Source: Aliivibrio fischeri ES114
GTDB lineage: Bacteria > Pseudomonadota > Gammaproteobacteria > Enterobacterales > Vibrionaceae
Assembly (NCBI RefSeq): GCF_000011805.1
Contig: NC_006841.2
Reading direction: 5' to 3' (one strand)
DNA: 32,000 nt
The position numbers were made by a program, and so were the translations under genes. Under the pieces are notes generated by a model that had not been told where the DNA came from, made no database searches, and worked only from the letters and a program-made list of their open reading frames with translations. Each line of letters begins with the position of its first letter. Position 1 is the stretch's first letter. Below, piece after piece: positions 6,476 through 32,000 of this stretch.

Positions 6476-6578
6476 ATCTTTATAGTTTGGTTTTTAAAAA
6501 TTTTAAAAAAATAGTTGAATACGGATTTTTATCATTTGTATTCATTGTTGTGATAACAATATAAAAAAGAGAAAGTAG

Positions 6579-8753: not shown

Positions 8754-8777
8754 CTGATTCTTTTGTAAATAAAATTA

Positions 8778-8812
8778 ATAAGGCTATCTTTATAAGATAG
8801 CCTTATTTTTTC
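8778..8812 (+). terminator. Rho-independent terminator after iutA
   Basis: Perfect hairpin TAAGGCTATCT / AGATAGCCTTA followed by a T-run, 25 nt after the iutA stop. Confidence 0.8.
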
Positions 8813-8935
8813 TTAATAACTGCCGAGTGTGTCCATGTATTGATGGCGATAATTCGGTATGATTGAAATATAAGCATTTTATTTATAAGGTGTAGAAGGT
8901 TTAGCCATTTATAAATTAGAAAAGGATGACAACTA

Positions 8936-9859
8936 ATGACATACGACACATTAATTACCATCGGCGTTTTGGTTTTCTTGGTCTTAGTTCTTATTGCTCT
9001 TGGGGTTAAAATGGTACCGCAAGGCTATAATTGGACCGTAGAACGTTTTGGACGATATACGCAAACATTGCAACCTGGTTTGAATATTATTATTCCATTT
9101 ATTGATGGTATCGGACAGAAAATCAATATGATGGAACAGGTTCTTGATATTCCAGCACAAGAAGTGATTTCCAAAGATAATGCTAATGTAACGATTGATG
9201 CGGTTTGTTTCGTTCAAGTTGTTGATGCAGCAAAAGCCGCTTATGAAGTAAGTGACCTTCAACATGCTATTCGTAATCTTACATTAACGAACATGCGTAC
9301 AGTGTTAGGTTCTATGGAGCTGGATGAAATGCTAAGCCAGCGAGATATGATTAACGTAAAACTGTTAGCGATTGTCGATGCAGCAACAAACCCATGGGGG
9401 GTAAAGGTTACACGTATTGAAATTAAAGATGTGCAACCACCTGCGGACTTAACTGCTGCGATGAATGCTCAAATGAAAGCTGAACGTAATAAACGAGCAG
9501 ATGTACTTGAAGCGGAAGGGGTGCGTCAAGCTGAGATATTAAAAGCAGAAGGTCATAAGCAAGCTGAAATTCTTAAAGCTGAGGGTGATAAGCAAGCTGC
9601 AATCTTGCAAGCAGAAGCTCGTGAACGTGCGGCTGAAGCAGAAGCTAACGCAACCAGAATGGTATCAGAAGCGATTGCTCAAGGTGATGTTCAAGCTGTT
9701 AATTACTTTATCGCTCAAGGTTATACTGAGGCAATTAAATCGATTGGCCAAGCAGAGAATGGCAAAATTATTATGCTACCATTAGAGGCAACAGGTTTAA
9801 TGGGCTCTGTTGCTGGCATTGCTGAGATGTTCAAAGCAGATAAAGAGGTCCAAAAATAG
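8936..9859 (+). CDS. qmcA: SPFH/band-7 (stomatin-prohibitin family) membrane protein, QmcA-like
   Basis: 307 aa, collinear with remembered E. coli QmcA ([48 protein letters not shown], repeated AEILKAEG segment). N-terminal TM helix; RBS AAGGA upstream. Confidence 0.9.
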
Positions 9860-9868
9860 GAGTTCACC

Positions 9869-10321
9869 ATGGAGTTTTTTGAACAGATGAATCATTGGCA
9901 CTGGTTGACTTTAGGGTTGTTACTACTTGCTGGTGAATTATTAGGAACTGCGGGCTATTTTTTGTGGATAGGGCTATCAGCGGTGGCTGTTGGAGCGCTA
10001 TATGCCGTGATACCACTTAGTTGGCAAATGCAGTGGATCAGTTTTGCTGTTTTTTCACTCTTTACGACTTGGTTGTGGTGGCGATATCAACATAAAAAAG
10101 ACATAAGTTCAGATGCAAAAAGAGCGCTTAATCAAAAAGATAAGCAACTAATTGGTCAAACATCTCGTTTGGAAGAAGATATTCATGCAGGTTCTTGTCG
10201 AATTGTATTAGGTGATACTACATGGTCCGCTAAAAGTGCCGTTGATATAGAAAAGGGAACGCTAGTTCGTGTGGTTTCTGTTGACGGTATTATTTTGACG
10301 ATTGAACCAGTAAAAAAATAA
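9869..10321 (+). CDS. ybbJ: NfeD-family membrane protein (YbbJ-like partner of QmcA)
   Basis: 150 aa with three N-terminal TM helices and a C-terminal OB-like soluble domain (GTLVRVVSVDGIILTIEP). It starts 9 nt after qmcA, the usual SPFH-NfeD operon arrangement. Confidence 0.85.
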   Translation: MEFFEQMNHWHWLTLGLLLLAGELLGTAGYFLWIGLSAVAVGALYAVIPLSWQMQWISFAVFSLFTTWLWWRYQHKKDISSDAKRALNQKDKQLIGQTSRLEEDIHAGSCRIVLGDTTWSAKSAVDIEKGTLVRVVSVDGIILTIEPVKK

Positions 10322-10338
10322 TTTAACATGTTCATTTA

Positions 10339-10388
10339 AAGTGGATGATTTGTTGTATTTAACTGCAATGAATCATTCACTTTTTTTA
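10339..10388 (+). terminator. Probable terminator after ybbJ
   Basis: AGTGGATGATT ... AATCATTCACT stem (one G-U pair) with a loop of about 20 nt, followed by TTTTTTT. Confidence 0.5.
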
Positions 10389-10557
10389 CATGTTCTTTGT
10401 GAAAGATATTTCCTTGTTTCAAATATAGTTAGCTTGTATTCATATATTCATAAATTAATGTACTTTTGTGCCTTTTTATTTTATTTTTTGCACCCTAGCC
10501 AAAGAATATAGCTATGGCGATAAAAATAATTATAAGTTAATTCAATGGACAAAAATT

Positions 10558-11808
10558 ATGGATTATAAAAACCTAACGGTACAAAAGAAAATTGCTACTG
10601 TTTTTTCTGTTATTGGTTTGGTAATGGTGGCATTTGCTCTGTTCCTTTTACAAGAATTAAATAAAGTAGAAGCAGAAGTAATTAACTTTACTGACTCTAC
10701 AGTACCGAGTGTGTTGTCTGCAGAAGAATTATATTTTGAAATGAACGCATATCGTCGAAATCAATATGCAGCATTAAATTATGAAACAAAAGATGCATTA
10801 GGCTTTTTAACTATTCTGTCGAAGCAAGAAAATGATATCAAAGCGGAGCTTGCAGCGTATGAAGCGACGGTTATTACTGAACATGAACGCCGTATCTTTG
10901 ATCGTGTTAAAAATAGTTGGAAAACCTATACGACTCAACTTAAGGATTTTAATAGTTTAGTTAGTAATCAAGAAATCAAACAAGCACAGAAAGAGTTAGT
11001 TAATTCATTTATTTTATTTGAAAATGTAGGGGCTGCATTAGATGGGTTAGTGCAAATCAATATAGGATTTGTTGCGAATAACCGAACAGCGATTATGCAT
11101 AGTGTTGATAATGTAACCACTGCAACAAAAGTGTCATTTAGTGCATTAATTGTATTTATGATTTTCGTAACTTTCTTCTTAGCTCGTCAAATTTGCCGCC
11201 CACTACATTTGGTTGTTGAGCAATCTAAAGCGATCGCAGCTGGGGATTTAACCTTTGAACTTCGTCGTGAAGAGATTGGTAATGATGAATTAGGCGCATT
11301 AGCTGATGCGAATATCGAAATGCAGTATCAATTGCGAACTTTAATTGAGAATACAATTTCAGCGGTAACTCAACTTTCAGTAGAAGTGAAAGAAATGAAT
11401 GACAGTTCAGAAAAACCGTTTAGTGATATGACAACGTCTTCTGATATTACGGTTGTTGCGGCTGCAATTGACGATATAAAAACAGCTATTGATGAACCTA
11501 AAAGAGAGTCAATTAAGCTAAATAGTATAGTTGAAATTATGGGCAGTATTGCTGAAGAAACCCATGCATTTGCTGCGAATGTAGCGAATGAGACTTCTAA
11601 TTTGGATAAACAAAATGATCGTTTTGAGATGATGGTGACTGAAGCTCATGCTCTTGCTAGTCATACTCAATTATCGACGAAAAAAGCAGTGACGTTCATA
11701 GAATCATTGCAAGAAAATATGACCTATAAAAACATTGAGCAATCGAGAATAAAATTATCTCAATTAGCAAATACACTACAAACATTTTTATCTTATTTTA
11801 AAGTGTAA
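10558..11808 (+). CDS. MCP paralog with intact sensor, TM2 and HAMP but a truncated, degenerate signalling domain (possibly decaying or non-canonical)
   Basis: From ATG 10558 (MDYKNLTVQKK, parallel to [11 protein letters not shown] of the two downstream MCPs) it is collinear without gaps through residue about 300. It is then 125 aa shorter. The hairpin tip reads IAEETHAFAANVANETSNLDKQNDRFEMMVTEAHALA instead of [37 protein letters not shown]. The ORF-track extension to GTG 10468 has no counterpart in the paralogs. Confidence 0.7.
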   Translation: MDYKNLTVQKKIATVFSVIGLVMVAFALFLLQELNKVEAEVINFTDSTVPSVLSAEELYFEMNAYRRNQYAALNYETKDALGFLTILSKQENDIKAELAAYEATVITEHERRIFDRVKNSWKTYTTQLKDFNSLVSNQEIKQAQKELVNSFILFENVGAALDGLVQINIGFVANNRTAIMHSVDNVTTATKVSFSALIVFMIFVTFFLARQICRPLHLVVEQSKAIAAGDLTFELRREEIGNDELGALADANIEMQYQLRTLIENTISAVTQLSVEVKEMNDSSEKPFSDMTTSSDITVVAAAIDDIKTAIDEPKRESIKLNSIVEIMGSIAEETHAFAANVANETSNLDKQNDRFEMMVTEAHALASHTQLSTKKAVTFIESLQENMTYKNIEQSRIKLSQLANTLQTFLSYFKV

Positions 11809-11963
11809 TTTTTAAACGCTATTTATATTTTCCATAATAAATTATTGCTCTAAGCTCAAGTTAAAAAATAAATTAATTTATATAAACTTTAATGTCATTT
11901 TTCAGGCGATATAAATTTGACGGTTGAGCTTATTAAAAATGAATTTAACATGGTGTTATCAAA

Positions 11964-12011
11964 AAATAAGTAATTTACAGCAATAAATTTTGTCGAATTA
12001 CTTATTTTTTT
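11964..12011 (+). terminator. Terminator-like hairpin in the MCP1-MCP2 spacer
   Basis: Perfect 12-bp stem AAATAAGTAATT / AATTACTTATTT with a 21-nt loop, followed by a T-run. It lies about 155 nt downstream of the MCP1 stop. Confidence 0.45.
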
Positions 12012-12084
12012 ACATTCGTAAAATTAGCAAAGGTTTCCGTTTCTTATGTAGTTACAAACGTTTAATTTAATTAACTTTTTTTAA

Positions 12085-12232
12085 ATTATAAAACTGTGTG
12101 ACTTTTAGATAATTTTATTTTACTTTCTCGCTTATCTACAATTTACGTTTGTAGGTGAGTTAATTCGTTAGCTCAAAATAACAATGCTCATGGAACGAGT
12201 AAAAAGAATAAATTATAAGGTTGTAAAATTAC
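12085..12232 (+). promoter_or_regulatory. Conserved 148-bp leader/promoter region of MCP2 (copy A)
   Basis: Aligns without indels to 14177..14324 (118 of 148 identical by hand count). Blocks such as ATTATAAAAC-GTGTGACTTTT and TGCTCATGGAACGAGT..AGAATAA.TTATAAGGTTGTAAAA are shared. Confidence 0.6.
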
Positions 12233-13864
12233 ATGAGTTACAAAAATTTAGCAGTACAAAAGAAAATTGCAGTTGTCTTTTCTGCCATTGGCGTGGTAAT
12301 GGTTACGTTTGCTTTTTTCCTATTACAAGAATTAAATAAAGTAGAGTCTGAAGTTATTAACTTTACAGATTCTACTGTCCCAAGTGTATTGTCAGTTGAG
12401 GCAATGTATTTTGAAATGTCCGTACTACGTCGTAGTCAATATGCATCATTAACATATAAAGAATATGACTCTGGTTTAGAGGCTTTGTTTAAGCGCCAGA
12501 ATACAACTTTAGCGAATATCAAAAACATGTTAGCTAGCTACGATGCAACAGTTGCAGGAGCAGAAGAACGAAGAGTTTTTGATGCAGTACTGGCATCATG
12601 GAAGGCTTATTCAAATCTTTTTCGTGATTTTCCTCAATTAATTAAAGATCGTGAACTTGATAAAGCTCATGCGATTTTAGTTAATTCGTTAGATGATTTT
12701 AATGGTGTTGGCGATGCAATGGATGGATTAGTTGATATTAACCTTGGTTTTGTTAGTAATAACCGTACTTCCATTATGAGTAGCGTTGATAGCGTAACAT
12801 TAGCAACAAAAGTATCGTTTAGTGCATTAATCGCATTTATGATCTTTATTACTTTCTTTTTAGCTCGTCAGATTTGTCGCCCATTAAACTTAGTGGTTGA
12901 ACAGTCTAAAGCGATTGCTGCAGGTGATTTAACGTTTGAACTTCGTCGTAGCGAGATTGGTAATGATGAGTTAGGTGCGCTAGCGGATACTAACATTGAA
13001 ATGCAGCATCAATTACGAATTCTAATTGAAGATACGATTTCTGCTGTTACTCAACTTTCAGCAGCGGTTGAAGAGATGAGTGCAATCTCTGAGCAATCTT
13101 CACGTGGTATGCAACAACAACAATCAGACATCACAATGGTTGCAGCTGCAATGGAAGAGATGAAGGCAACGGTTGCAGAAGTGGCAAACAACACTGAAAC
13201 AGCATCAACGTCTGCTCTAGAAGCGTCAGAAGAAGCGAAGCAAGGTAACCAAGACGTTCAATCTAATATTGAGCAAATTCAGATTGTTTCTCGTGATATC
13301 GAACAAGCAGGAGAATTGGTTGAAGAGTTAGAACGCGAATCAAATAACATCAGCGTGGTTGTTGAAGTTATTCGTGGTATTGCTGATCAAACGAACTTAT
13401 TAGCATTGAACGCAGCGATTGAAGCGGCACGTGCTGGCGAACAAGGTCGTGGTTTCGCGGTTGTTGCCGATGAAGTTCGTTCTCTTGCTGGTCGTACTCA
13501 ATCATCAACAAGTGAAATCGTTGAAATCATTGAGAAGTTACAAGCAAGTGCTGCACACGCTAAATCAGCGACAGATCAAAGTTGTTCTAAGATCCGTGTT
13601 TGTGTAGAGCAAAGTGTTCAAACGGGTAACTCAATTCAAATGATTGAAGAAACCATGATGAAAGTAACTGACACGAGCATTCAAATTGCAAGCGCATGTA
13701 GCCAACAAGATTCTGTAACAGAAGAACTTGGTCGCAATATTCAAAGCATGAGTCTATCGGCAAGTGAAGTTGCACTGGGTGCAGAGCAAACGGCTCAATC
13801 AAGTGTTGAGTTAGCGCAGTTAGCAAATAAATTACAAACTTCTTTATCGTACTTTAAAGTTTAA
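12233..13864 (+). CDS. Methyl-accepting chemotaxis protein (four-helix-bundle-type periplasmic sensor, HAMP, MCP signalling domain)
   Basis: 543 aa: TM1, a roughly 155-aa helical periplasmic domain, TM2, HAMP ([22 protein letters not shown]), and the canonical signalling hairpin [42 protein letters not shown]. Confidence 0.95.
12809..13815. repeat. 1,007-bp direct repeat copy 1 (TM2-HAMP-signalling part of MCP2)
   Basis: Aligns with 14895..15901 at a constant offset of 2086 with no indels. I counted about 27 nucleotide differences (about 97% identity). The encoded 335 aa are identical. Confidence 0.9.
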
Positions 13865-13887
13865 TTTTTGATTGAATTTAAAGAATA

Positions 13888-13917
13888 AAGTGATGGCAAA
13901 TGCCATCACTTTTTTTA
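13888..13917 (+). terminator. Rho-independent terminator after MCP2
   Basis: GTGATGGC-AAAT-GCCATCAC hairpin followed by TTTTTTT, about 25 nt after the stop. Confidence 0.8.
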
Positions 13918-14176
13918 TAAGTCCATAGGAAATCAACAATAATAGAAAGATTGTATAAAAAAATCTTTTAAAAAAAGCATTGGCGCTTTGTTTGTTGGCG
14001 GTATATTTTTGACCTTTGAGCCATAGTGAAAGTATTTTCACATTTTTTTATTGAATTTAGGTAAATTGTTACTTTTATCAATAACACCTTATTTACCTTT
14101 TTTACCATTTCAAAAATGCAATGGTTTGCTTGTTGTGGGATTTAATAACTTATTAATTTATTTAACCTTTATTGCA

Positions 14177-14324
14177 ATTATAAAACCGTGTGACTTTTTA
14201 CGTATTTTATTTTATTTTCTCGCCTCTCTGCCGATAACGTTCGCAGATGAGCTAATTTATTAGTTCAAAACAGTAATGCTCATGGAACGAGTGAGAAGAA
14301 TAATTTATAAGGTTGTAAAACATC
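14177..14324 (+). promoter_or_regulatory. Conserved 148-bp leader/promoter region of MCP3 (copy B), containing a sigma-28-like -10 element
   Basis: Collinear with 12085..12232. Only this copy contains GCCGATAA (14230..14237), the -10 consensus of FliA/sigma-28 promoters. No TAAAG-like -35 is seen at the expected spacing. Confidence 0.45.
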
Positions 14325-15950
14325 ATGAGTTACAAAAATTTAGCAGTACAAAAGAAAATTGCAGTTGTCTTTTCTGCCATTGGTTTGGTGATGATTGCGT
14401 TTGCTTTTTTCCTATTACAAGAATTAAATAAAGTAGAGTCAGAAGTTATTAACTTTACTGATTCTACTGTTCCAAGTGTGTTATCGGTGGAAGACGTATA
14501 TTTTGAAATGAACGCGTATCGTCGTAACCAATATGCAGCATTAACATATCAAGAAAAAGATTTACCAAACTTATTAGCTCTTTTGTCAAAACAAGAGGCA
14601 CAAATTCAATCTGATCTTGATGCATATGAAGCAACGGTTGCGAGTGCTGATGAACGTCGTGTTTTTGAGCGTGTTGCAAATAGCTGGCAGAAATACTTAA
14701 CTCAACTAAAAGAATTTAATGGTTTAGTTGCGAATAAAAAGGCTAAGTTAGCTCAACAAGAGCTTGTGGATTCTTTTTCTCAGTTTGAAGAAGTAGGCAC
14801 TGCTATGGATGGTCTACTTCAGGCTAACCTTGTTTTTGTTAGTAACAATAGAAAATCAATCATGGGCAGCGTTAATAACGTAACGTTGGCGACTAAAGTA
14901 TCTTTTAGTGCATTAATCGCATTTATGATCTTTATTACTTTCTTCTTAGCTCGTCAGATTTGTCGTCCATTAAACTTAGTGGTTGAACAGTCTAAAGCGA
15001 TTGCTGCAGGTGATTTAACGTTTGAACTTCGTCGTAGCGAGATTGGCAATGATGAGTTAGGTGCGCTAGCGGACACTAACATTGAAATGCAGCATCAATT
15101 ACGAATTCTAATTGAAGATACGATTTCTGCTGTTACTCAACTTTCAGCTGCGGTTGAAGAGATGAGTGCGATTTCTGAGCAATCTTCACGTGGTATGCAA
15201 CAACAACAATCAGACATCACAATGGTTGCAGCTGCAATGGAAGAGATGAAGGCAACGGTTGCAGAAGTGGCAAACAACACTGAAACAGCCTCAACGTCTG
15301 CTCTAGAAGCGTCAGAAGAAGCGAAGCAGGGTAACCAAGACGTTCAATCTAATATTGAGCAAATTCAGATTGTTTCTCGTGATATCGAACAAGCTGGTGA
15401 ATTGGTTGAAGAGTTAGAGCGCGAATCAAATAATATCAGCGTGGTTGTTGAAGTTATTCGTGGTATTGCTGATCAAACGAACTTATTAGCATTGAATGCA
15501 GCGATTGAAGCGGCACGTGCTGGTGAACAAGGTCGTGGTTTCGCGGTTGTAGCCGATGAAGTTCGTTCTCTTGCTGGTCGTACTCAATCATCAACAAGTG
15601 AAATCGTTGAAATCATTGAGAAGTTACAAGCAAGTGCTGCACACGCTAAATCAGCGACAGATCAAAGTTGTTCTAAGATCCGTGTTTGTGTAGAGCAAAG
15701 TGTTCAAACGGGTAATTCAATTCAAATGATTGAAGAAACCATGATGAAAGTGACGGACACGAGCATTCAAATTGCAAGTGCATGTAGCCAGCAAGATTCA
15801 GTAACAGAAGAACTTGGTCGCAATATTCAAAGTATGAGCCTATCGGCAAGTGAAGTTGCACTAGGCGCAGAGCAAACGGCTCAATCAAGTGTTGAGTTAG
15901 CACAATTGGCTTCAACTCTTCAGCAGTCTCTATCGCGCTTTAAAGTGTAA
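14325..15950 (+). CDS. Methyl-accepting chemotaxis protein (paralog of MCP2 with a different periplasmic sensor core)
   Basis: 541 aa with the same architecture. Residues 191 to about 525 are identical to MCP2. The periplasmic core (about aa 55-185) is strongly diverged. Confidence 0.95.
14895..15901. repeat. 1,007-bp direct repeat copy 2 (TM2-HAMP-signalling part of MCP3)
   Basis: See copy 1; offset 2086, no indels. Confidence 0.9.
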
Positions 15951-22948: not shown

Positions 22949-23614
22949 GTGTCCCGTATTTTAGTTGTTGATGACGACATTGAGCTATGCAATTTGTTGC
23001 AAGAAGTATTACAAGATGAAGGCTATGATGTCGATTGCGTACATTGTGGCGAAAGTGCTCTGGAATTTATTCAAACGCACTCCATAGATCTCGTTTTGCT
23101 TGATGTAATGCTACCAAAGCTAGATGGTTACCAAGTGGCTCGACGTATATGTCAGCGTTTTGCTACTCCTATCCTTATGCTTACGGCTTTAGGCGATGAA
23201 GCGTCTATGCTTGATGGATTGCAAGCGGGGGCGGATCATTTCATTGCGAAACCTTTTAATGTGCCAGAACTACTTGCAAGGATCACTGCGATTTTACGTC
23301 GTGTAGGGCTTGAACGTCAGCGTCAAAGCTATGTAGGTGCAACGGAAGATTTAGCAGAACAATTTTTACGTCTACCTTTAACTGAAACGGAATCAGAATT
23401 ACTGCAATACTTAATTAAAAATACGGACGTTGTTGTATCTAAAGCTGATTTACAAACCAATATTTTGAAAAAAGAGTTATGTCCATTTGACCGTAATTTG
23501 GATATGCATATTAGTAATATCCGCCGTAAATTATTGCAATCAGGCTTATCAAAGCAGCATATTAAAACGGTTCGTGGGCGTGGTTATAGTTTTATTAAAG
23601 TGGTTAATGGATAG
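22949..23614 (+). CDS. OmpR-family response regulator, CpxR-like
   Basis: 221 aa with a GTG start. Receiver domain (ILVVDDD, LVLLDVMLP, AKPF). The output domain has the CpxR-like block LCPFDRNLDMHISNIRRKL (E. coli CpxR: LTPFDRAIDMHISNLRRKL) and VRGRGY. Confidence 0.8.
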   Translation: MSRILVVDDDIELCNLLQEVLQDEGYDVDCVHCGESALEFIQTHSIDLVLLDVMLPKLDGYQVARRICQRFATPILMLTALGDEASMLDGLQAGADHFIAKPFNVPELLARITAILRRVGLERQRQSYVGATEDLAEQFLRLPLTETESELLQYLIKNTDVVVSKADLQTNILKKELCPFDRNLDMHISNIRRKLLQSGLSKQHIKTVRGRGYSFIKVVNG

Positions 23615-23619
23615 GGGGA

Positions 23620-25008
23620 ATGACGTTGCTTCGATGGTTTGAGTCGTGTCCCTCTTTTATTTGCAAATATAAAAATGGCCTAGCATTTCGTTTATTTAGT
23701 GCTTTTGCTGTGAGTCTATTTTTAATTATCTCTTTGCAAAGCTTGGCCGAAATTGCGTTGATGAAATCTATGCTCCGTATTCCTAGCTCTATTCAGACTA
23801 AGATGCTGGATTTGGCCGAGCAGGCAAATATCTTGATCGAAGAAGGGGATATGGATGAGTTAGCGGATTGGGCGAGTGCACAAGAGTACTATTTATTTGT
23901 TTTGGACCAAAATAACCGCCCAATTACACATCGCGATATGCATCCTCATTTTGAGTTTAAACTGAAATTTTTACGCCCTTTAAATACGCAATTGGATAAT
24001 GAAGTTAATCAACCCATTATTGGTATTCCGTTAGAAAACGGATTAACTATTGTGATTCAAATGCCGTATCAATATCACCCAGCTAATAATTTTCCTCTTT
24101 ATTTTGGGATTATTAAGTTAGTTATTTCTGTATTGATATTAGGGTTATTCTCTTGGGTTATTGCACGATATTTACAGCGACCTTTAGATAAGTTGAGAGA
24201 GGTTAGTCATAAGCTTGCTCAAGGTGATTTTGACGTAAAGGTGAGTGACGAAATTGGAAATTCGGTTCGAGAGTTCAGTGAATTAGCTCATGATTTTGAT
24301 AACATGACGCATGAAATTCACTCGCTAGCAGAAAAGCAACAGCGACTTATTCGTGATGTTTCGCATGAGTTAAGAACTCCATTAGCTCGGCATAATCTTG
24401 CGCTTCATTTATTAAAAAAGAAGGTTGCTCCTGATTATATTCACTTAGTTAACCGTTTGGAAAATGAATCTAATGAGATGAATGATTTAGTTGGAGAAAT
24501 CTTAGAATTTAGTCGATTAGAGAATTCTCGCTATAACACTAAACTAGAGCCTGTATTACTTGAAAGCTGTATCTCCGCACAAGTGATTCAAAGCCGCATG
24601 GATTTAGGACCGACACAATGTTTGGATTTTATCTGCTCTAAAGAAGCTCCAGTTGTTCATGCTGAACCTCGCTTAGTAACTCGAGTGGTTAAAAACTTAA
24701 TCACCAATGCGATTAAGTACGCTGGCGATAATGCATATATTCAAGTGGTTATCACAGAATATCGAAGCCGTGAGAAAAACCATGTGGCAATTATTGTTGA
24801 AGATAATGGCCCAGGCATACCAGAAGATCAGCTCTTAAATATATTCTCCCCCTTTACACGCTTAGAGTCGGCAAGAGATAAGCAATCAGGTGGTTATGGA
24901 CTCGGTTTGGCTATTGTAAAAGAGTCTATGTTTGTTATGAAAGGAAGTGTTGTTGCTGATAATCGTAAAGAAGGTGGATTAAGAGTGATGTTGTTGTTTC
25001 CAGTTTAA
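23620..25008 (+). CDS. Sensor histidine kinase, CpxA-like (periplasmic domain, HAMP, HisKA, HATPase)
   Basis: 462 aa; RBS GGGGGA. Two TM helices around a roughly 115-aa periplasmic domain, HAMP (RPLDKLREVSHKLAQGDFDVKV), H-box DVSHELRTPLAR, and N/G boxes (ITNAIKYA, DNGPGIP, GGYGLGLAIV). Confidence 0.85.
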   Translation: MTLLRWFESCPSFICKYKNGLAFRLFSAFAVSLFLIISLQSLAEIALMKSMLRIPSSIQTKMLDLAEQANILIEEGDMDELADWASAQEYYLFVLDQNNRPITHRDMHPHFEFKLKFLRPLNTQLDNEVNQPIIGIPLENGLTIVIQMPYQYHPANNFPLYFGIIKLVISVLILGLFSWVIARYLQRPLDKLREVSHKLAQGDFDVKVSDEIGNSVREFSELAHDFDNMTHEIHSLAEKQQRLIRDVSHELRTPLARHNLALHLLKKKVAPDYIHLVNRLENESNEMNDLVGEILEFSRLENSRYNTKLEPVLLESCISAQVIQSRMDLGPTQCLDFICSKEAPVVHAEPRLVTRVVKNLITNAIKYAGDNAYIQVVITEYRSREKNHVAIIVEDNGPGIPEDQLLNIFSPFTRLESARDKQSGGYGLGLAIVKESMFVMKGSVVADNRKEGGLRVMLLFPV

Positions 25009-25034
25009 AATACAATAACTTTAGTGTTAATAAT

Positions 25035-25075
25035 AAAGGCTAATTCTATAAAATTTAGGATTAGCCTTTTTTGTT
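25035..25075 (+). terminator. Rho-independent terminator after the CpxA-like kinase gene
   Basis: AAAGGCTAAT ... ATTAGCCTTT 10-bp stem followed by TTTTTG. Confidence 0.75.
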
Positions 25076-25222
25076 ATATATATTCATAAAACATATTAAA
25101 TAAATATATTTCACGGATATCGAATATTATTTTGTTATTGATTTCATAAGAGGGTTTTCATGATGATTATGCTAGTTGTTGCATTTAAAACTTAATGTAT
25201 ACTGCGCCGAATTATTTGGCTA

Positions 25223-26275
25223 GTGTATATTTTAGGTAAAATTTTGTTTAATAAATTATTAATTATCTTATGCGGTGTTATTTTTTGTAATATGGCCGTG
25301 GCGTCTTCTAATATAAAGACATCATCAGAAATTTCATTATCAACTTCTTCTATTTATGACTTTTTGGAACGTGATGAATCTTGGTTTGCGATTAAAGATA
25401 TTGCAGAGAAGAAAAACATTAACTCTGTAACTATCTACTTTCAAGGAAAGATTGATAATAACGTAACTCAAAGTCAAGTTGATGATATCAATGCGTTATT
25501 AACAACAAAGATGCAAGAATCAGGCTTATTGGTTCGTGATTGTCTTGAGTGTAATAAGACTCGACTTCATTTAACTAAAACCTCTATTAAATATCAACGT
25601 GGACTTGAAAGTAATAAAGAGTTGCGTTTACTGGGTCAAGAAATTCAATCTGACGCATTTTTAATGTGGCGAATGGGTTTAAGTGATTCCTCTCAAAATA
25701 TTACTCTTTCTTTAGTTCAGGCCGAAAATAATGAAACGATTTGGGCTGATGGTTATTTAATGACTAAAAAAGAAGAAGAAATTAAGAAGGAATTGAACCC
25801 ACACCAGTTTGGCTTCGCTATGAGCTATATTGATTTAAGTGGTGATGCCAAAGTTAATGGAGAAAGTCATGGTACTTTTAGTAACGTGACTGATTTTAGT
25901 CTTCGTTATTACACTCGTCATTTACCTAGTGAACGTTTGCATTTTGCTGTTATTGCAAATTACTTCCAAAATACGGATAGAAATAACTTATTTAATGTTG
26001 AAGGTGGTGGTATTGAAGGGCGTGTTTTATACACTTTAACTCCTTCTTGGCCGTCTCCGAGTTTATATATTGGTGCTGGTTCTCAATTCGTTGAAGGAAA
26101 GAACAGTTTCGCGATGCGTTCAGGTGTTGAATTTGCCTATATGAAGAATGGTTTTTTTGATATCGGTGTCGCTTATATTGAAAAGAACTCTTTCAAGAGT
26201 AAGCACCAAGGTGATGTTGTGACTGGCAAGTTTGGCGGTGCGGCTGTTGATTTTACTATTGGTTTTCGTTTCTAA
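25223..26275 (+). CDS. Secreted protein: N-terminal alpha/beta domain of the FlgO/LpoB/CsgG-like pattern plus a C-terminal outer-membrane beta-barrel-like region
   Basis: ORF from GTG 25223. A TTG at 25244 with AGGT 6 nt upstream would give a cleaner signal peptide (MFNKLLIILCGVIFCNMAVA/SS). The C-terminal third shows alternating hydrophobic beta-strand periodicity and ends in GFRF, with the terminal Phe typical of OMPs. Confidence 0.5.
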   Translation: MYILGKILFNKLLIILCGVIFCNMAVASSNIKTSSEISLSTSSIYDFLERDESWFAIKDIAEKKNINSVTIYFQGKIDNNVTQSQVDDINALLTTKMQESGLLVRDCLECNKTRLHLTKTSIKYQRGLESNKELRLLGQEIQSDAFLMWRMGLSDSSQNITLSLVQAENNETIWADGYLMTKKEEEIKKELNPHQFGFAMSYIDLSGDAKVNGESHGTFSNVTDFSLRYYTRHLPSERLHFAVIANYFQNTDRNNLFNVEGGGIEGRVLYTLTPSWPSPSLYIGAGSQFVEGKNSFAMRSGVEFAYMKNGFFDIGVAYIEKNSFKSKHQGDVVTGKFGGAAVDFTIGFRF

Positions 26276-26284
26276 GGGGCTGTT

Positions 26285-26827
26285 ATGAAAAAGCGTATTT
26301 TATTTGTTTCAGCCATTGCTATTCAATGCATGATGACTTCAATGGCATTGGCTAATGATATTACATCTCAGCAAACAGCAGAGAATATTCCTTTTGAAAA
26401 GAATCAATTATCTGTTCGATTGAATGGGGAACAATATCGTTCGGCGTTTCAAATTGACTTGTCTGATCCAAATTTGATTTTGACTATTGATACTGATCTT
26501 ATTCCTGAGGAAGACATTGATGCTTTGTTACCTGAATTAAATGATTCAGAAGAAGCTCAAGTTTCAGCATTTAATGAGCCTAAATCATTAGCTTTACGTA
26601 TAGAAGCAAAAGAAAAAGCGGCTAATGGTGATTTTGTAGGGGCCCTTGCCTTATTAAATGAAGCTGAAGCACTAACAGAAAACCCTGCAAAAGTACTGTC
26701 AATGAAAGGTAGTGTTCACTATAAGCTGAACCAAGTTGAATTGGCGATAGTGTCATGGAAAAAAGCATTAGAACTTGATCCATCACTTACAGAAGTCTCT
26801 GACATTATTCAATGGTTGGAAAAATAA
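26285..26827 (+). CDS. Periplasmic TPR-repeat protein
   Basis: 180 aa; RBS AAGGGG. Signal peptide ending ALA/ND. The C-terminal half reads as two TPR motifs (GDFVGALALLNEAEAL ... GSVHYKLNQVELAIVSWKKALELDPS). It starts 9 nt after the previous gene. Confidence 0.65.
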   Translation: MKKRILFVSAIAIQCMMTSMALANDITSQQTAENIPFEKNQLSVRLNGEQYRSAFQIDLSDPNLILTIDTDLIPEEDIDALLPELNDSEEAQVSAFNEPKSLALRIEAKEKAANGDFVGALALLNEAEALTENPAKVLSMKGSVHYKLNQVELAIVSWKKALELDPSLTEVSDIIQWLEK

Positions 26828-28551
26828 GAATGAAATCGTGTATTCGTTTTGTATGCATTAGCTTTTTATTTATTACCTCAATTGTTTTCGCGCAAACGTC
26901 GTTGCAGTTGGACCAAATGTCTTTTACTGCGGAATTAGAGCAACGACTTAATAGCGATATTGAACGAATTGCAGGTAAGAATATACATGTGCTTTCTATT
27001 CAGGCTGAGTTTATTCGTGAGGAGGTTGATGCTTCAACATCTAAACCGATAGTTGCTAAACAAAAACCAGAAGTAAAAAACGTTATTATGGATGATGCTC
27101 CTGAGCTTCCAGGCTTAGCAGGCATGTCTGCTTTCAATAAGAATACTGCTGCAAAAGTGTCGACAGTAAGCGAGGAAGTAGAGCAGCAAGAAGATGCGTT
27201 AGATAATGAACAAGTATCTAAAACGGAGAAAATGATCCGTTCTTTATCAACTACATTGTTATTAGATAATAGTGTGGATAAAGATACAGAGTTGCTTATT
27301 CGCAATCTGTTACTTGAGAAGTTGGAATACAACCCAATGAGAGGGGATCGTCTTGAGATTATTCGGATGGATATGGCTCCTGTATCAGAAATAACGGGAT
27401 CATCTATCGCACACTATTGGTGGGTGTTGGTTTTATTATTACTATTATTAGTTATTGGTTACTTACTTGCACGTAATCGTAAAGTATCTACAAAAGAAGT
27501 GGGTGTTAATGAAGTAAGTTCATTGCCTCCAATGCCTGAGCAATTGTTAGATACGAAAAAAGGCGAACTGAAAGCGTGTCGACAACAATTGGTTAAGTAC
27601 AGTTTGAGTGAACCTCAAAAAGTAGATGCGGTACTTCGTCGTTTAAGTTTGAATGAACAAAATATCCCTATGTTCGCTTCTTGTTATCAGGAACTAGGAC
27701 GTTCGTTGTTTACTTCAATGTTTCCTGCGTTAAATGAACATATTCCAGCGTATTTGAAGTATTTAGAAACGAACCCTGCTGATTATGATCGCTTGGTGAG
27801 AGATTTAACGGATTTACAATATTTATTAGTTGATGCGGTTTCTTCTGAGCAATTTGAACATCGCAGTCGACCATTTTCGTTTTTAGATAAATTGAGTATT
27901 AATCAAATTCGTTGGGTATTAGATGATGAGCCATTGCGCATTAAAGCATTAGTCTTAAGCCAATTGCCATCAGAAAGCTCAGCTAAGTTCTTATCAACGT
28001 TTACGGCTGAAGAACAAGCATTAATAGCAATAGAGATAGTTCAGTTTGATTCCATGCCAATGGCGACATTTGGTGAGATTGCCTCATCACTTGCTGCTAA
28101 AGCTCAATCGGTACCTGATTTTGAAACTGTAAGAACCGATGGTAATCAAATGTTGATGTCGTTACTTGATGGAATGAATTTACGTCAGCAAAACGATTTG
28201 TTAGATCAGCTAAGAGTGTCTTCGCCAGAAGCATATTTAAATCTACGTAAGGTGTACTACATTTTTGATGACGTGCTTAGAACGCCAACAGTCATTTTAA
28301 GCAATATATTACGCAGTATGAATCCTGAAATTTTAGCATTAGCGTTGATTAATTTAGATGATGAACAAGTCGCAGTCATTCTTTCAGGATTCCCTGAACG
28401 TATGATTGAAATGATTAAAGCTGAAATGGTGCGTTATAAAGATGCGTCGTATGATGAGCAAAACTCAGCAAAACAACAAGTTGTGATGTTAATGCGCCAA
28501 GCTATTGGAAATAAACAATTTACAATGAATGATTTGGAGTCTGTAGCATGA
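26812..28551 (+). CDS. Bitopic inner-membrane protein: miniaturised FliF-like N-terminal part fused to a full-length FliG-like cytoplasmic part
   Basis: The alternative start ATG 26830 (MKSCIRF) gives an N-terminal signal/anchor helix. A second TM lies at aa about 201-220. C-terminal aa about 355-570 are collinear with FliG middle and C-terminal domains (FSFLDKLSINQIRWVLDDEPLRIKALVLSQLP; YYIFDDV in place of MFxFEDL; ILRSMNPEILALALINLDDEQVAVILSGFPERMIEMIKAEM). N-terminal segments match FliF landmarks (ELEQRLNSDIERIAGKNIHV; NPMRGDRLEIIRMDMAP just before the TM; SEPQKVDAVLRRL after it). Confidence 0.7.
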   Translation: MVGKIRMKSCIRFVCISFLFITSIVFAQTSLQLDQMSFTAELEQRLNSDIERIAGKNIHVLSIQAEFIREEVDASTSKPIVAKQKPEVKNVIMDDAPELPGLAGMSAFNKNTAAKVSTVSEEVEQQEDALDNEQVSKTEKMIRSLSTTLLLDNSVDKDTELLIRNLLLEKLEYNPMRGDRLEIIRMDMAPVSEITGSSIAHYWWVLVLLLLLLVIGYLLARNRKVSTKEVGVNEVSSLPPMPEQLLDTKKGELKACRQQLVKYSLSEPQKVDAVLRRLSLNEQNIPMFASCYQELGRSLFTSMFPALNEHIPAYLKYLETNPADYDRLVRDLTDLQYLLVDAVSSEQFEHRSRPFSFLDKLSINQIRWVLDDEPLRIKALVLSQLPSESSAKFLSTFTAEEQALIAIEIVQFDSMPMATFGEIASSLAAKAQSVPDFETVRTDGNQMLMSLLDGMNLRQQNDLLDQLRVSSPEAYLNLRKVYYIFDDVLRTPTVILSNILRSMNPEILALALINLDDEQVAVILSGFPERMIEMIKAEMVRYKDASYDEQNSAKQQVVMLMRQAIGNKQFTMNDLESVA

Positions 28552-29330
28552 TCTCATTCAGTACTATTACCGGCTTATTGATGGCGTTTGGTGTATTAAT
28601 TGGTGCAGTAACAATGAGTACCGATAAATACATGTTATTTGTGAGTTTATCGAGTTTTCTTATTGTGCTTGGTGGAACATTAACTGCGGCGTTAATCAGT
28701 TATTCATACCCACTTATTTTGTCTTCGTTTAAAGGGTTACTTGTTAACTTGCTTGACGAGACAAACGTGACGAAATTTAAGCACGCATCAATCAAAAGAA
28801 CAGTTGAATGGAATCAGATCTTTCGATCAAGCGGCATGTCGGGTTTAGAAAATTCGTTAAATGATAATGAAAAAAATGACCCATTTATCCGTTTAGGTGT
28901 AGAACTTATTGGAACTGGTTATAAAGGTGAAGAGCTTAAAAAATTACTAGATGAAAGTAATCATAGTCAATATAAGCAAGAAATGACGCAAGCTGAGGTC
29001 TTAAACTCAATGGGTACTTATGCACCTGGTTTTGGCATGATTGGTACATTGATTGGTTTGATTATTATGCTTGATAATTTAAATGGTGATATGGCTGCTT
29101 TAGGTAATGGTTTAGCTGTTGCTTTATTGACGACTCTCTATGGCATTTTATTAGCTCAAGTGTTTTTCAAACCCGCAGCAATTCGTATTAGTCGTCGAGT
29201 AAATACCAATTTTGATAATCGTGAAATGCAAATTAATGCGTTTGTATTAATGACAGAAAAACGTCCTGATTTGTACTTACAAGATTCAATGAATGTACAT
29301 TTGCCGTTTAAGAAAAGGTTAGCGTCTTAA
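28548..29330 (+). CDS. Flagellar-type stator A subunit homolog (MotA/PomA family ion channel protein)
   Basis: 260 aa with 2+2 TM helices around a roughly 100-aa cytoplasmic loop. The TM3-TM4 region is near-collinear with remembered Vibrio PomA (APGFGMIGTLIGLIIML ... GLAVALLTTLYGILLAQVFFKPAA). The ATG overlaps the upstream stop (ATGA). Confidence 0.85.
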   Translation: MISFSTITGLLMAFGVLIGAVTMSTDKYMLFVSLSSFLIVLGGTLTAALISYSYPLILSSFKGLLVNLLDETNVTKFKHASIKRTVEWNQIFRSSGMSGLENSLNDNEKNDPFIRLGVELIGTGYKGEELKKLLDESNHSQYKQEMTQAEVLNSMGTYAPGFGMIGTLIGLIIMLDNLNGDMAALGNGLAVALLTTLYGILLAQVFFKPAAIRISRRVNTNFDNREMQINAFVLMTEKRPDLYLQDSMNVHLPFKKRLAS

Positions 29331-29972
29331 ATGAATAGAACAAGACCCAAGGTTGAGTTGAAAGACGATAATGATTGGATGATGACATACAGTGATGCCA
29401 TCACATTATTATTGGCCTTTTTTGTTCTGATTGTTGCTGTTTCTCAAGTGAATGAAGGTAAGTTAGAAGAACTAAAAGATGGATGGGGAAAAGTGGTTGA
29501 TACTGCGGCTCACCTGCCTATGCAAGAGCTAACCGCCGATATTCAGGAGATAGTTGAGCAAAAGAATTTAGATTCTGTCGTGGTCACGGCTGTCACCGAT
29601 GGTATACGAATTGATCTTAATAGTGAAAATTTGTATGACTCAGGTTCAGCATCTTTAAAGCCTGAAGGTAAAGCTCTTATTTCTGAATTTGCAGAAGCGA
29701 TGAAAGAGGTCGATTTAAATGGTCGTTCTATTATCGTTGAAGGGCACAGTGATGATTTACCCATTCATACAAAGCAGTTTGATAGTAATTGGGAGCTTTC
29801 TGGAGCAAGAGCCATAGAAGTGACTAAGCAATTGATCAAATTTAATGTGGATAAATCACAATTAAGAGCGGTGGCGTATGCGGATGCACAACCTCGGGCG
29901 GATAAAGCATTACCGATAGAACAACAGCGTCAATTAAATCGACGTGTTGTGATTTATATTAAAAGAAATTAA
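29331..29972 (+). CDS. Flagellar-type stator B subunit homolog (MotB/PomB family, OmpA-like peptidoglycan-binding domain)
   Basis: 213 aa. Single TM with the conserved channel Asp (WMMTYSDAITLLLAFFVLIV) and a C-terminal OmpA/MotB domain (GHSDDLPI ... NWELSGARA ... NRRVVIYI). It starts immediately after the motA-like stop (TAAATG). Confidence 0.85.
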   Translation: MNRTRPKVELKDDNDWMMTYSDAITLLLAFFVLIVAVSQVNEGKLEELKDGWGKVVDTAAHLPMQELTADIQEIVEQKNLDSVVVTAVTDGIRIDLNSENLYDSGSASLKPEGKALISEFAEAMKEVDLNGRSIIVEGHSDDLPIHTKQFDSNWELSGARAIEVTKQLIKFNVDKSQLRAVAYADAQPRADKALPIEQQRQLNRRVVIYIKRN

Positions 29973-30004: not shown

Positions 30005-30036
30005 AAAGCGCTCTAAATATAGAGCGCTTTTTTTAT
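30005..30036. terminator. Bidirectional rho-independent terminator between the motB-like gene and the convergent molybdoenzyme gene
   Basis: AAAGCGCTCT-AAATAT-AGAGCGCTTT hairpin flanked by an A-rich run on the left and TTTTTTT on the right. Confidence 0.8.
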
Positions 30037-30077: not shown

Positions 30078-32000
30078 TTACCCATTCATTGGTGGGGTAA
30101 ACGCCGTTAATGTTGGTGCAACACCTGTGAATTTTTCAATTTTCACAACACCAGAATTACCACAGTTACCGTTACCTAGACGTGATGTTGGTATATCCAT
30201 AGTTAATACGTTTGGACCACCGTTTTTACACATACCTGTTTTAGGATCTAAGTCAGGCCATGCACCTTCATGGATACATACACTGCCTTTTTTGATGCCA
30301 TCAGAAACATGAGCACCAACCAAAACTTGCCCACGTTGGTTGTAAGCACGAACTAAGTCGCCATCTTTAATACCACGAGCTTTAGCATCTTCTGGGTGAA
30401 TCGTAATTGGTTCACGATCTTGGATTGCATACTCTTTACGAAGATCAGCATAGTTAAATTGGCTGTGTAAACGATGAGCAGAGTGCGACGTCATTAATTG
30501 AAGTTCGCCATCGGTGTAGTTGAACATCCATTCTGTTGGTTCCATCCATACAGGGTGTGGAGGACAATCATCTAACTTAAAGCCTTCGATGGTTTTTGAG
30601 AAGATCTCAATTTTACCACTTGGTGTACCTAGTGGATTCATGATTGGATCTTTACGGAAGTCACCAAAACGAACAAACTCGGCATTCTTTGCGTTCCATT
30701 TCATTTCGATAAGTTGGTTTGCTTCCCAGAACTTAGTGAAATTCATCATTGGAACACGTGCGTTTCGTCCACCTTTTTGAGCTGCTTTATAGAAATCACG
30801 AAGCCATTCCATCTCCGTTTTATTTTCCATATATACATTACGACCACCTGGTTTTAAATGTTCAGCCATATCTGCGAAAACATCTAAATCGTTACGTGCT
30901 TCATGTTGTGGCTCAACAACTTGTTTCATTGGAACTAGGTGTTGGTTAGAGTAGTCACCTGTCATCGTCATGTCATTACGCTCAAATGAGGTAGTGATTG
31001 GAAGAACGATATCCGCATGCTTTGCAGCAGCAGTCCAATATGGTTCTGAAATAACGATCAGTTCAGGTTTTTGCCACGCTTTAATCAAACGGTTGGTATC
31101 TTGGTGATGTGTAAAGTTTGCACCGCCTGCCCACCAAATCATTTTTAACTCAGGGAAAGTTAATGTATGGCCATTGTGTTGATATTGAGTTCCCGGTTTT
31201 TCTAAACATTCAACAATACGCGCAACAGGGAAAGCCGTTACTGAACCTTGAACTGCCCAATCGTTACCTGCTGATGAGCCACCGCCTAATGACGCTGACA
31301 TTGCTGGTAATACACCTGCATCACGTGTTGGGTTACCACCATTAGAGTAGTGGTATGAGTAACCAAAACCACCGCCCGGTAGTCCAACTTGACCAAGCAT
31401 AGAAGCAAGAACGGTTAGCATCCAGTGACGTTGTTCACCATGTTGTTGACGTTGCATACCCCAACCAGCCATAAGCATCGTGCGGTTTTCTTTGAAGATC
31501 TTAGCCAGCAATTCCATCTGTTTTGCTGGTACGCCACAAATCGCTTCTGCCCATTGTGGTGATTTCTCAATACCGTCTTCTTTACCCATTAAGTAAGTTT
31601 CAAATTGCTCGAAGCCCACAGTGTACTTAGAAAGGAATTCAGTATCGTGCTGCTGTGTTTTAACTAATTGATGAGCGATACCCATCATCATTGCCACATC
31701 TGATTGTGGGTTCGGTGCAATCCATTGTGCATTATCACCAAAGAATTCAGCAGTTTCTGAACGCATTGGGTCAATAATGATGATGGTTTTGCCTGATTTT
31801 TTCAGTTGATGGAAAAACTCAAGGCCTTGCCCGTCTGTTGAAGACCATGCAATTTTTAGTGTGTTTAATGGGTTTAGACCCCATAACACAACCACTTCAC
31901 TGTTTTCTAAAATAACAGGATAAGTAGTTTGTTGTTCATATACTTCGATAGAACCAACAACGTGTGGCATGATAACTTGAGCTGCACCTGTTGAGTAATC
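30078..32000 (-). CDS. torA: Molybdopterin oxidoreductase of the DMSO reductase family, TMAO reductase (TorA)-like; 5' end outside window
   Basis: The minus-strand ORF is open to the window edge. It is collinear with remembered TorA/DorA blocks ([68 protein letters not shown]). The periplasmic TorA call over TorZ or BisC cannot be confirmed because the N-terminal Tat signal region is off-window. Confidence 0.7.

Follow-up and report, generated by a model that had tools for sequence, protein, structure and literature searches.

A five-gene module of flagellar-motor-like parts in Aliivibrio fischeri ES114: a natural FliF-FliG fusion with its own stator pair as a candidate flagellum-independent rotor-stator machine

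The five-gene locus

Within a 32,000-nucleotide stretch of Aliivibrio (Vibrio) fischeri ES114 DNA (contig NC_006841.2; the whole stretch is referred to as the window), five plus-strand open reading frames (ORFs), designated g1 to g5, occupy positions 25223-29972 (Table 1). They code for a putative outer-membrane (OM) protein, a periplasmic TPR protein, a natural fusion of portions of FliF and FliG, and a MotA/MotB-type stator pair, and are treated here as a candidate rotor-stator machine operating apart from the flagellum.

An earlier note on this DNA had described five packed same-strand ORFs, and reading of the sequence confirmed both their coordinates and their junctions. The ATG of g2 (26285) follows the TAA of g1 (26273-26275) after a gap of 9 nucleotides (nt). 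The stop codon of g2 (26825-26827) is either overlapped by g3 for 16 nt, if the latter is read from ATG 26812, or separated from it by 2 nt, if read from ATG 26830, the position at which homologues of g3 begin. Genes g3 and g4 share the overlap ATGA (28548-28551), and g4 and g5 abut without a gap (TAAATG). For g1, database homologues start at TTG 25244, corresponding to 343 amino acids (aa). Transcription of the five genes as a single unit is plausible from their packing.

The flanking terminators reported by the same note were recovered as hairpins on both sides. The upstream hairpin terminates the histidine-kinase gene located before the module (stop 25008), from which it insulates the latter; the downstream one is common to the module and to the convergent molybdopterin oxidoreductase gene (30078-31970, minus strand). 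Overall, 9 terminator-like sites were detected in the region, against 3.7 +/- 2.3 in shuffled sequences. The sigma-70-like match in the leader (25083-25110, 9/12) is not significant. A riboswitch (e.g., for cyclic di-GMP) was not detected, since Rfam gave nothing at gathering score in the window and a chance-level match only in 24950-25350.

Table 1. The five genes of the module and the flanking sequence features
Feature	Position	Strand	Product or structure	Name
Upstream terminator-like hairpin	25035-25075	+	14-pair stem 25035-25069, then T-tract	
AT-rich leader, presumed promoter region	25076-25222	+	weak sigma-70-like match	
g1	25223-26275	+	350 aa	
g2	26285-26827	+	180 aa	
g3	26812-28551	+	579 aa; 573 aa from ATG 26830	
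g4	28548-29330	+	260 aa	motA2, VF_A0186
g5	29331-29972	+	213 aa	motB2, VF_A0187
Downstream terminator-like hairpin	30005-30036	both strands	11-pair stem 30005-30030, T-runs on either side	

A natural FliF-FliG fusion protein

FliG is a soluble protein of ~330 aa, the middle domain of which binds FliM via an EHPQR motif. FliF assembles into the MS ring of ~33-34 subunits, and its N-terminal half (TM1, RBM1 and RBM2) houses the flagellar export gate. The product of g3 combines portions of both proteins. Residues 365-567 contain the Pfam domains FliG_M (1.2e-18) and FliG_C (1.3e-16), and the protein matches Thermotoga maritima FliG at 7e-9. The N-terminal half is without Pfam match, YscJ_FliF being absent even at E<=1. 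When a profile of 35 members of the g3 family was compared with the sequences of the PDB, FliG was retrieved at 8e-45, Salmonella FliF at 8e-11 (FliF residues 226-558) and Vibrio FliF at 2.6e-10. With the N-terminal half as sole query, Salmonella FliF was again retrieved, at E=1e-8. The alignment with FliF covers the first helix of RBM3 (DVESRIQRRIE in FliF, ELEQRLNSDIE in g3), the second half of RBM3, the RGD...F motif preceding TM2, TM2 itself and the FliG-binding tail. Homology starts at FliF residue 221-226, and the full TM1-RBM1-RBM2-RBM3-TM2 architecture of FliF is thus not found in g3, whose periplasmic part comprises ~170 aa.

The AlphaFold2 (AF2) model of g3 (predicted local distance difference test, pLDDT, 67; from 7 sequences) has a signal peptide, followed by a periplasmic region composed of an RBM3-like alpha-beta unit, an insert and a beta-alpha-beta unit, a single transmembrane helix (202-223) and an all-helical cytoplasmic part, in which a FliF-tail-like segment precedes part of the FliG N domain and the FliG M and C domains. 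The disordered insert (70-139) carries an LPGL motif, and the RGD motif is located at 177-179. Foldseek searches with the model retrieved full-length Aquifex FliG (3hjl) at 5.7e-9 over 331 columns, as well as S-ring/RBM3 structures of Vibrio (8z5v/8z4d) and Salmonella with probability 1.0 and target-normalised TM-scores (TMt) up to 0.63. The C-domain matched FliG_C with TMt 0.84-0.88 and root mean square deviations (rmsd) of 1.4-1.6, and superposes on stator-bound FliG_C (8UCS, 8ucs_H) with TMt 0.84 and rmsd 1.4 A. Word-indexed protein searches yielded 5 close homologues of g1 and, with the 35-member g3 family as query, 20 proteins that were all known already; because so few homologues were returned, the alignments underlying the models of both g1 and g3 are shallow.

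Among 141 full-length members of the g3 family, the PFxFL motif at the start of the FliG middle domain is nearly invariant, LPGL in the insert is kept in 133-136 and the RGD motif in 119-138. Position 530, equivalent to R281 of Escherichia coli FliG, is R or K in 123 of the 141. The FliM-binding motif is not kept, the EHPQ of T. maritima FliG aligning to DEPL in g3, and the score against the curated fliG model TIGR00207 (55.7 bits) does not reach the cut-off of 226.7. Since the FliF-profile alignment, the FliG domains and the fold matches agree, g3 is regarded as a natural fusion of the C-terminal half of FliF with FliG that is devoid of FliF TM1, RBM1 and RBM2. The mini FliF-FliG fusion proposed in the earlier note was accordingly recovered from both of its sides, FliF by family profile and fold, FliG by Pfam and fold.

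The stator pair

Genes g4 and g5 are identical with the genes known as motA2 and motB2 in ES114 (PMC3948606, PMC10441365); judging from adjacency, g1-g3 would presumably be VF_A0183-5. The g4 product contains a MotA_ExbB domain (Pfam, 2.6e-23), and its residues 4-258 align with the solved MotA and PomA structures in the PDB, namely Clostridium sporogenes MotA (4.4e-27), Bacillus subtilis MotA (2.6e-23) and Vibrio PomA (5e-23). Matches to TolQ (3e-3), ExbB (4e-3) and ZorA models (1.6e-3 over ~60 residues) are negligible, compared to 1e-42 for flagellar models. The g5 product displays MotB_plug (9.6e-14) and OmpA (6.6e-18) domains. The description of the pair as PomAB-like was thereby substantiated, and the failure of profile searches to find FliG, MotA or MotB domains, named in the earlier note as an outcome that would speak against its proposal, did not occur, as all of them were detected. 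R93 and E101 of g4 have the same 8-residue spacing as R90 and E98 of E. coli MotA, the residues that contact FliG; the Glu is present in 7/7 module MotAs, and the channel Asp (D22) of g5 in 7/7 module MotBs.

Neither protein reached the curated equivalog cut-off of any named flagellar stator protein in NCBIfam: the best model for g4 was PRK09109 (144 bits, cut-off 237), the PomA model gave 126 bits (cut-off 341), and the best model for g5 was MotD (158 bits, cut-off 283). Flagellar-type stators (the 'FIT' clade) are distinguished by a plug, an OmpA-type anchor and a large cytoplasmic interface, and by these structural criteria g4/g5 is a flagellar-type stator (PMC12505986). The MotA2 of the window scores 158-186 bits against the module MotAs of loci L009, L010, L013 and L014 (loci are introduced below), 130 bits against that of L011 and 69 bits against that of L001. 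The best of the solved flagellar MotAs reaches 98 bits, and PomA of Vibrio 85 bits. The higher scores with most module MotAs than with flagellar ones suggest a module-dedicated stator lineage.

When motA2 or motB2 was disrupted by insertion, motility in soft agar stayed normal, in contrast to the loss of motility in motA1 and motB1 mutants (Brennan et al. 2013, PMC3948606). Furthermore, motA2B2 is not activated by the flagellar master regulator FlrA (PMC3948606). An ordinary auxiliary stator set, the competing possibility raised in the earlier note, is therefore disfavoured.

Periplasmic and outer-membrane partners

The g2 product has a signal peptide and C-terminal TPR repeats (TPR_11, 2.6e-8; TPR_2, 1.8e-7), in agreement with its earlier designation as a periplasmic TPR protein. 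Members of the g2 family consist of a small conserved N-terminal domain, a variable linker and the TPR region, and several homologues possess a lipobox-like Cys. The Cys in 'AIQC' of g2 (26303-26305, residue 7 region) aligns with the lipobox-like Cys of distant homologues (LVGC, SACS, LMGC). Judging from these sequences, g2 may be a lipoprotein in many lineages, with an atypical lipobox in A. fischeri.

The g1 product is a secreted protein, and the window protein has no Pfam or NCBIfam match. Among 10 g1 homologues, all of which were compared with Pfam, FlgO (PF17680) was matched by 2 (best 8.5e-4), OMP_b-brl by 2 (6e-3) and CsgG by 1 (0.2); the FlgO match is weak and does not extend to g1 of the window. 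The AF2 model (pLDDT 61, from 6 sequences) shows an alpha/beta N-domain (~residues 65-185) and ~10 C-terminal strands ending in a terminal GFRF. Foldseek related it to TolB (5e-5) and, with probability 1.0 and TMt ~0.5, to NspA, the transmembrane domain of OmpA, OmpW, Ail and OmpX. Together with the location of g1 homologues in module loci, the model makes it reasonable to regard g1 as an OM barrel whose periplasmic domain is TolB-N/FlgO-like, an assignment less secure than any other in the module. The earlier assignment as an OM-type protein therefore stands in part: the model resembles OM barrels and TolB, and the evidence is weaker than for the other products, with no Pfam match of its own.

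A CxxC motif in g1 (CLEC, residues 107-110, 25541-25552) is shared by the gammaproteobacterial homologues and that of locus L012 and is absent from those of L010 and L001; from its sequence it could be a disulfide or metal site.

Distribution and gene neighbourhoods

The g3 protein has 99% identity to database proteins of A. fischeri. An exhaustive profile search detected 195 cluster representatives of the g3 family at E<1e-30. Nearly all are ~600 aa in length, align from end to end and share the layout of signal peptide, periplasmic part, transmembrane helix and FliG region. Among Vibrionaceae, the family is present in A. fischeri, A. logei, A. finisterrensis, Vibrio penaeicida, V. nigripulchritudo, V. 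agarivorans and Vibrio sp. SCSIO 43136. Metagenome-assembled genomes (MAGs) harbouring it belong to Saccharospirillaceae, Deltaproteobacteria, Fibrobacterales, Campylobacterales and Pseudomonadota.

Gene neighbourhoods were counted in 17 independent loci (numbers prefixed with L), the products being matched across loci with iterated profiles. A homologue of the TPR protein g2 is adjacent to the FliF-FliG gene in 17/17, MotAB is adjacent in 14/17 and a g1-like gene is present in at least 13/17. Complete five-gene sets occur with permuted order: g1-g2-g3-A-B, as in the window, in L005-7, L009 and L011 (A and B denoting the MotA and MotB genes); g3-g1-g2-A-B in L010, L013, L014 and L016-18; and g1-g2-A-B-g3 in L001 and L019. 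L020 has the order g2-g3-A-B, and in L008, L012 and L021 MotAB is not adjacent. Since the same gene set occurs in distant lineages with permuted order, the module represents more than a chance association. No flagellar structural gene is located beside the module in any of the 17 loci, where the neighbours are housekeeping or assorted signalling genes. Conservation of the gene neighbourhood, which the earlier note had proposed to test, was found in these loci.

Fib_succ_major-domain proteins are encoded on the contigs of L016 and L018, and L018, L013 and L014 have in common a gene for a class-I W/Y tRNA synthetase upstream of the module. The Fib_succ_major proteins and the shared tRNA synthetase neighbour suggest that the largest g3 subfamily (59 representatives) resides in Fibrobacterota.

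Ratios of nonsynonymous to synonymous substitution rates (dN/dS) between A. fischeri and A. logei or A. finisterrensis range from 0.09 to 0.16 for g1-g3 and from 0.02 to 0.05 for g4-g5; because these values are low, the five genes are considered to be under purifying selection and maintained rather than decaying. In a genome labelled A. logei (L003), the module genes (6424-11158) are close to those of A. fischeri (dS 0.20-0.33), and the adjacent two-component genes (4128-6191) are saturated (dS >1.5 or not computable). This pattern in the sequences suggests that the module was recently recombined or transferred between Aliivibrio species.

In V. penaeicida and V. nigripulchritudo, a gene for a response regulator (RR)/GGDEF diguanylate cyclase lies ahead of the module (L005, 4917-6140; L007, 3190-4413), and behind the module are genes for an AsmA-family protein of 1307-1330 aa and a protein of ~124 aa (L005, 11442-15434; L007, 9641-13564). 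No terminator-like site was found in the 155-nt gap between the module and the AsmA-family gene in these two species. As AsmA proteins form an envelope-spanning lipid-transport family, this neighbour may be a hint of a link to the OM. Locus L012 contains an additional ORF of 465 aa (5380-6783) between the g1-like and TPR genes, which matches both the g2 profile (4.7e-27) and the g3 profile (1.6e-30). In L020 (8953-12262), the module lacks a g1-like gene and is followed on the same strand by a Bat-like MoxR AAA+/DUF58/DUF4381/VWA set. Signalling neighbours of the module vary by locus. A conserved dedicated regulator was considered and rejected: the upstream OmpR-type two-component system (22949-25008 in the window) is kept within Aliivibrio and is not orthologous to the system next to the Saccharospirillaceae module L009 (31% and 26% identity).

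Comparison with known systems

The flagellar motor core is the closest counterpart. The g3 protein corresponds to FliF (RBM3/S-ring, TM2 and tail) plus FliG (M and C domains, torque-helix Arg), and g4/g5 to MotAB/PomAB. In the flagellum, however, FliF and FliG are separate proteins, whereas g3 is one polypeptide that lacks FliF TM1, RBM1 and RBM2 and in which the FliM-binding motif is replaced. Moreover, the module loci are without adjacent genes for FliM/FliN, export apparatus, rod, hook, filament or L/P rings, and motA2/motB2 are dispensable for swimming.

Auxiliary stators such as Pseudomonas MotCD, Aeromonas PomA2B2 and Shewanella MotAB likewise represent a second MotAB-like pair in a flagellated gammaproteobacterium. 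They work on the ordinary FliG ring and are not known to come with a rotor gene. The stator of the module, in contrast, travels with its own FliF-FliG, TPR and OM genes, and its loss leaves swimming intact.

The H-ring proteins FlgO/FlgP/FlgT of Vibrio and the PflA/PflB scaffolds, all of polar flagellar motors, resemble the module in that a putatively FlgO-like OM protein and a periplasmic TPR protein accompany a stator; PflA and PflB are TPR stator scaffolds in Campylobacterota (PMC12054838). They differ in that the similarity of g1 to FlgO is marginal, g1 has its own barrel, and FlgP, FlgT and MotX/Y are missing from the module.

With Tol, Ton, GldLM/PorLM, AglRQS-Glt, SiiAB and ZorAB, the module has in common the concept of an ion-driven motor of the inner membrane that powers an OM or surface process and is encoded with periplasmic and OM partners, and in the model the N-domain of g1 resembles the N-domain of TolB from Tol-Pal in fold. 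The known functions of the non-flagellar 5:2 motors are listed in PMC12204202. These motors are ExbB/TolQ-like, have neither plug nor OmpA-type anchor and employ a rod-like transducer (TolA, TonB, GldM) (PMC12505986). The module differs by combining a flagellar-type stator with a FliF-FliG rotor, and no TolA/TonB/GldM-like protein is among its five products.

Engineered FliF-FliG fusions, i.e. the Salmonella deletion-fusions and the Vibrio construct of PDB entries 8z4d/8z4g, share with g3 the covalent 1:1 linkage of FliF to FliG and still assemble working motors. The Vibrio fusion in the PDB matches the g3 family profile in three stretches. These fusions are laboratory constructs of full-length FliF, whereas g3 is natural, widespread, much shorter and without RBM1/RBM2. 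Taken together, the module comes closest in operation to the flagellar motor core and in concept to Tol/Ton/GldLM/Agl-Glt, and it is a member of none of these systems.

Proposed function and alternative explanations

The five genes are best explained as encoding an autonomous, envelope-spanning and ion-gradient-driven rotor-stator machine made from flagellar-motor parts and independent of the flagellum, a reading given a probability of roughly 0.6. A non-swimming ion-driven machine is favoured because the same gene set recurs in distant bacteria and never beside flagellar genes. According to the proposed mechanism, g3 would oligomerize via RBM3 into an MS-ring-like ring carrying a FliG ring on its cytoplasmic face, and peptidoglycan-anchored MotA2/MotB2 units would engage the FliG C-domains. 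Ion flow through MotA2/MotB2 would then cause rotation of, or a push on, the g3 ring, which together with the stators or in place of them would be tied to the OM by the TPR protein g2 and the OM protein g1. Energy from the inner membrane could in this way be transmitted to a process at the OM or the cell surface, as Tol, Ton, GldLM and Agl/Glt do. Because RBM1/2, an export gate and a rod are absent, such a ring could not drive an axle, and the output should therefore be periplasmic, at the OM, or a signal. The favoured output would be mechanical work on, or sensing of, the OM or cell surface under the control of signal transduction.

Several points weigh against an autonomous machine. Ring formation, rotation and the contacts among the five proteins are inferred, and the operon is without a known phenotype. 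The acidic torque-helix positions of g3 are only partly conserved among the 141 family members, and the models of g1 and g3 are of modest confidence in view of their pLDDT and the 6-7 sequences behind them. A profile of the 10-member g1 family gave no match among PDB sequences, and both the FlgO/TolB-N domain and the barrel are weak by sequence. Three loci of the family (L008, L012 and L021) have no adjacent MotAB, so that the rotor-like protein may get by with no stator of its own or use one whose genes lie in another place. Finally, motA2/motB2 are ~two-fold down together with fliA, motX and cheV2 upon RscS overexpression in a biofilm study. The stator genes are dispensable for swimming as assayed in soft agar, a result compatible with a part in surface movement, so that a non-motility role is only presumed.

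A more specific version is put forward tentatively and at somewhat less than even odds: the module may be a free-standing minimal rotary motor, in which a FliF-FliG ring with its own stators and TPR-to-OM coupling performs non-flagellar mechanical work, and hence a new class of ion-driven envelope machine. Such a motor would be widespread in uncultured bacteria, apparently including Fibrobacterota, and could be either a stripped-down descendant of the flagellar motor or a surviving sister of the rotor-stator core that preceded the flagellum.

It is unlikely that the module is instead a conditional accessory of the polar flagellar motor, with MotA2/B2 as alternative stator, g3 co-assembling with FliF/FliG, and g1/g2 as H-ring- or PflB-like scaffolds, used under conditions such as high load, host mucus or low sodium. 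V. fischeri is flagellated, every part has its homologue among proteins of the flagellar motor or its scaffolds, the best NCBIfam matches of g4/g5 are MotC/MotD-type models, and the ~two-fold decrease of motA2/motB2 along with fliA, motX and cheV2 points in the same direction. Yet swimming is normal in the mutants and motA2/motB2 do not belong to the FlrA regulon (PMC3948606), the known auxiliary stators come without a rotor gene of their own, and g3 has DEPL in place of the FliM-binding EHPQ. In addition, the set is free-standing in 17 loci without flagellar neighbours, including Fibrobacterales MAGs and contigs with Fib_succ_major proteins, and across phyla most module MotAs resemble one another more than they do Vibrio PomA.

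Improbable, too, is a non-rotary sensor, in which FliF-FliG would serve as an immobile scaffold and the stator would act as a gated ion channel reporting envelope or surface load to cyclic di-GMP or two-component signalling. Such a role would account for the three loci without adjacent MotAB and for the signalling neighbours, which comprise OmpR-type systems (window, L009), RR-GGDEF (L005-7), GAF-HD (L010), PilZ (L008), RR/histidine kinase/PAS-GAF (L001), CheR (L017), a sigma-54 activator (L016) and FecR (L019). These neighbours differ by locus, however, as illustrated by the non-orthologous two-component systems of the window and L009, and a mechanical contact between rotor and stator is indicated by the retention of the ring-building RBM3, of the Arg in the torque helix and of the Arg/Glu pair of MotA. 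Sensing and rotation can, moreover, coexist.

That the genes are a functionless, decaying remnant of a lost second (lateral-type) flagellar system is very improbable. The patchy distribution across Vibrionaceae and the want of a phenotype would fit, but the five ORFs are intact, dN/dS is 0.02-0.16 between Aliivibrio species, the fused architecture and gene set are kept across phyla, the genes are tightly coupled for translation, and their transcripts were detected and are regulated. Least credible of all is a Zorya-type anti-phage defence with a MotAB-like motor sensing envelope perturbation: ZorB models match g5 at 8e-20, as they do for any MotB, and a restriction-modification pair lies ~8 kb from the module in one distant locus (L014), but similarity of g4 to ZorA is confined to the short stretch given above, g4 has 260 aa instead of >500 and no long ZorA tail, PADLOC found no match for g1-g3, ZorC/D-like genes are absent, and the neighbours are housekeeping or signalling genes rather than defence islands.

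Relation to previous work and significance

In a full-text literature search, the coverage of which leaves most subscription journals outside, neither the three upstream genes nor the module as a unit was found described, in keeping with the earlier note, whose author knew of no characterised system with this gene set. A proteomics paper on Fibrobacter succinogenes covers ExbB/ExbD-type MotA-family proteins only and not the module. Known already are the names motA2/motB2 and the null swimming phenotype; no description seems to exist of the FliF-FliG fusion, of the five genes as a unit or of their wide distribution.

Flagellar-type stators have been treated as specific for the flagellum, and the non-flagellar 5:2 motors have all been placed in the ExbB/TolQ-like group (PMC12505986). 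The present module firmly couples a stator of the flagellar type with a FliF-FliG rotor protein of its own and with OM partners, is not needed for swimming and occurs in distant phyla. If the module rotates, it would be a new entry in the very short list of biological rotary motors. No simpler rotor-stator pair would then be known, there being a single rotor polypeptide, which recommends it for structural and single-molecule studies. The module also bears on the origin of the flagellum, namely on whether a rotor-stator core could be useful without export apparatus, rod and filament; should it be a sister of a pre-flagellar core, it would show what FliF, FliG and MotAB can do without export apparatus or axle. 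Experimental access is favoured by its presence in the genetically tractable symbiont V. fischeri ES114, for which single-gene mutants exist. Database annotation is corrected as well, since members of the family are labelled 'flagellar motor switch protein FliG' or 'flagellar motor protein MotA2/MotB2'.

Genomic context in the window

All other window ORFs of >=100 aa were scanned. They belong to a siderophore cluster, an SPFH/NfeD pair, methyl-accepting chemotaxis proteins (MCPs), two-component systems, housekeeping functions and an oxidoreductase, and none of them is a flagellar structural gene (including fliM and fliN), as the earlier note had maintained for the 32 kb. The module is accompanied by two OmpR-type two-component systems, small housekeeping genes and the molybdopterin oxidoreductase gene; two-component systems had also been named as neighbours in that note. 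A plasmid or mobile origin was rejected, as PLSDB gave no megablast match and the GC content of the module (0.30-0.375) resembles that of its neighbours. Two antisense ORFs, 27000-27332 (minus strand, 110 aa) inside g3 and 29543-29764 (minus strand, 73 aa) inside g5, most likely arose by chance.

Three tandem MCP-like genes are located at 10468-15950. The product of the first (446 aa) has 4HB_MCP and HAMP domains without an MCP signalling domain at E<1e-5 and may be a truncated or divergent chemoreceptor. Genes for an SPFH/Band-7 protein and its NfeD partner (8936-10321) lie between the MCP-like genes and a siderophore receptor gene. After a fragment of a FecCD-type permease, the beginning of the window (21-8753) holds an aerobactin-type siderophore cluster and its TonB-dependent receptor gene, the cluster comprising genes for two IucA/IucC synthetases, a GNAT acetyltransferase and a lysine/ornithine N-monooxygenase.

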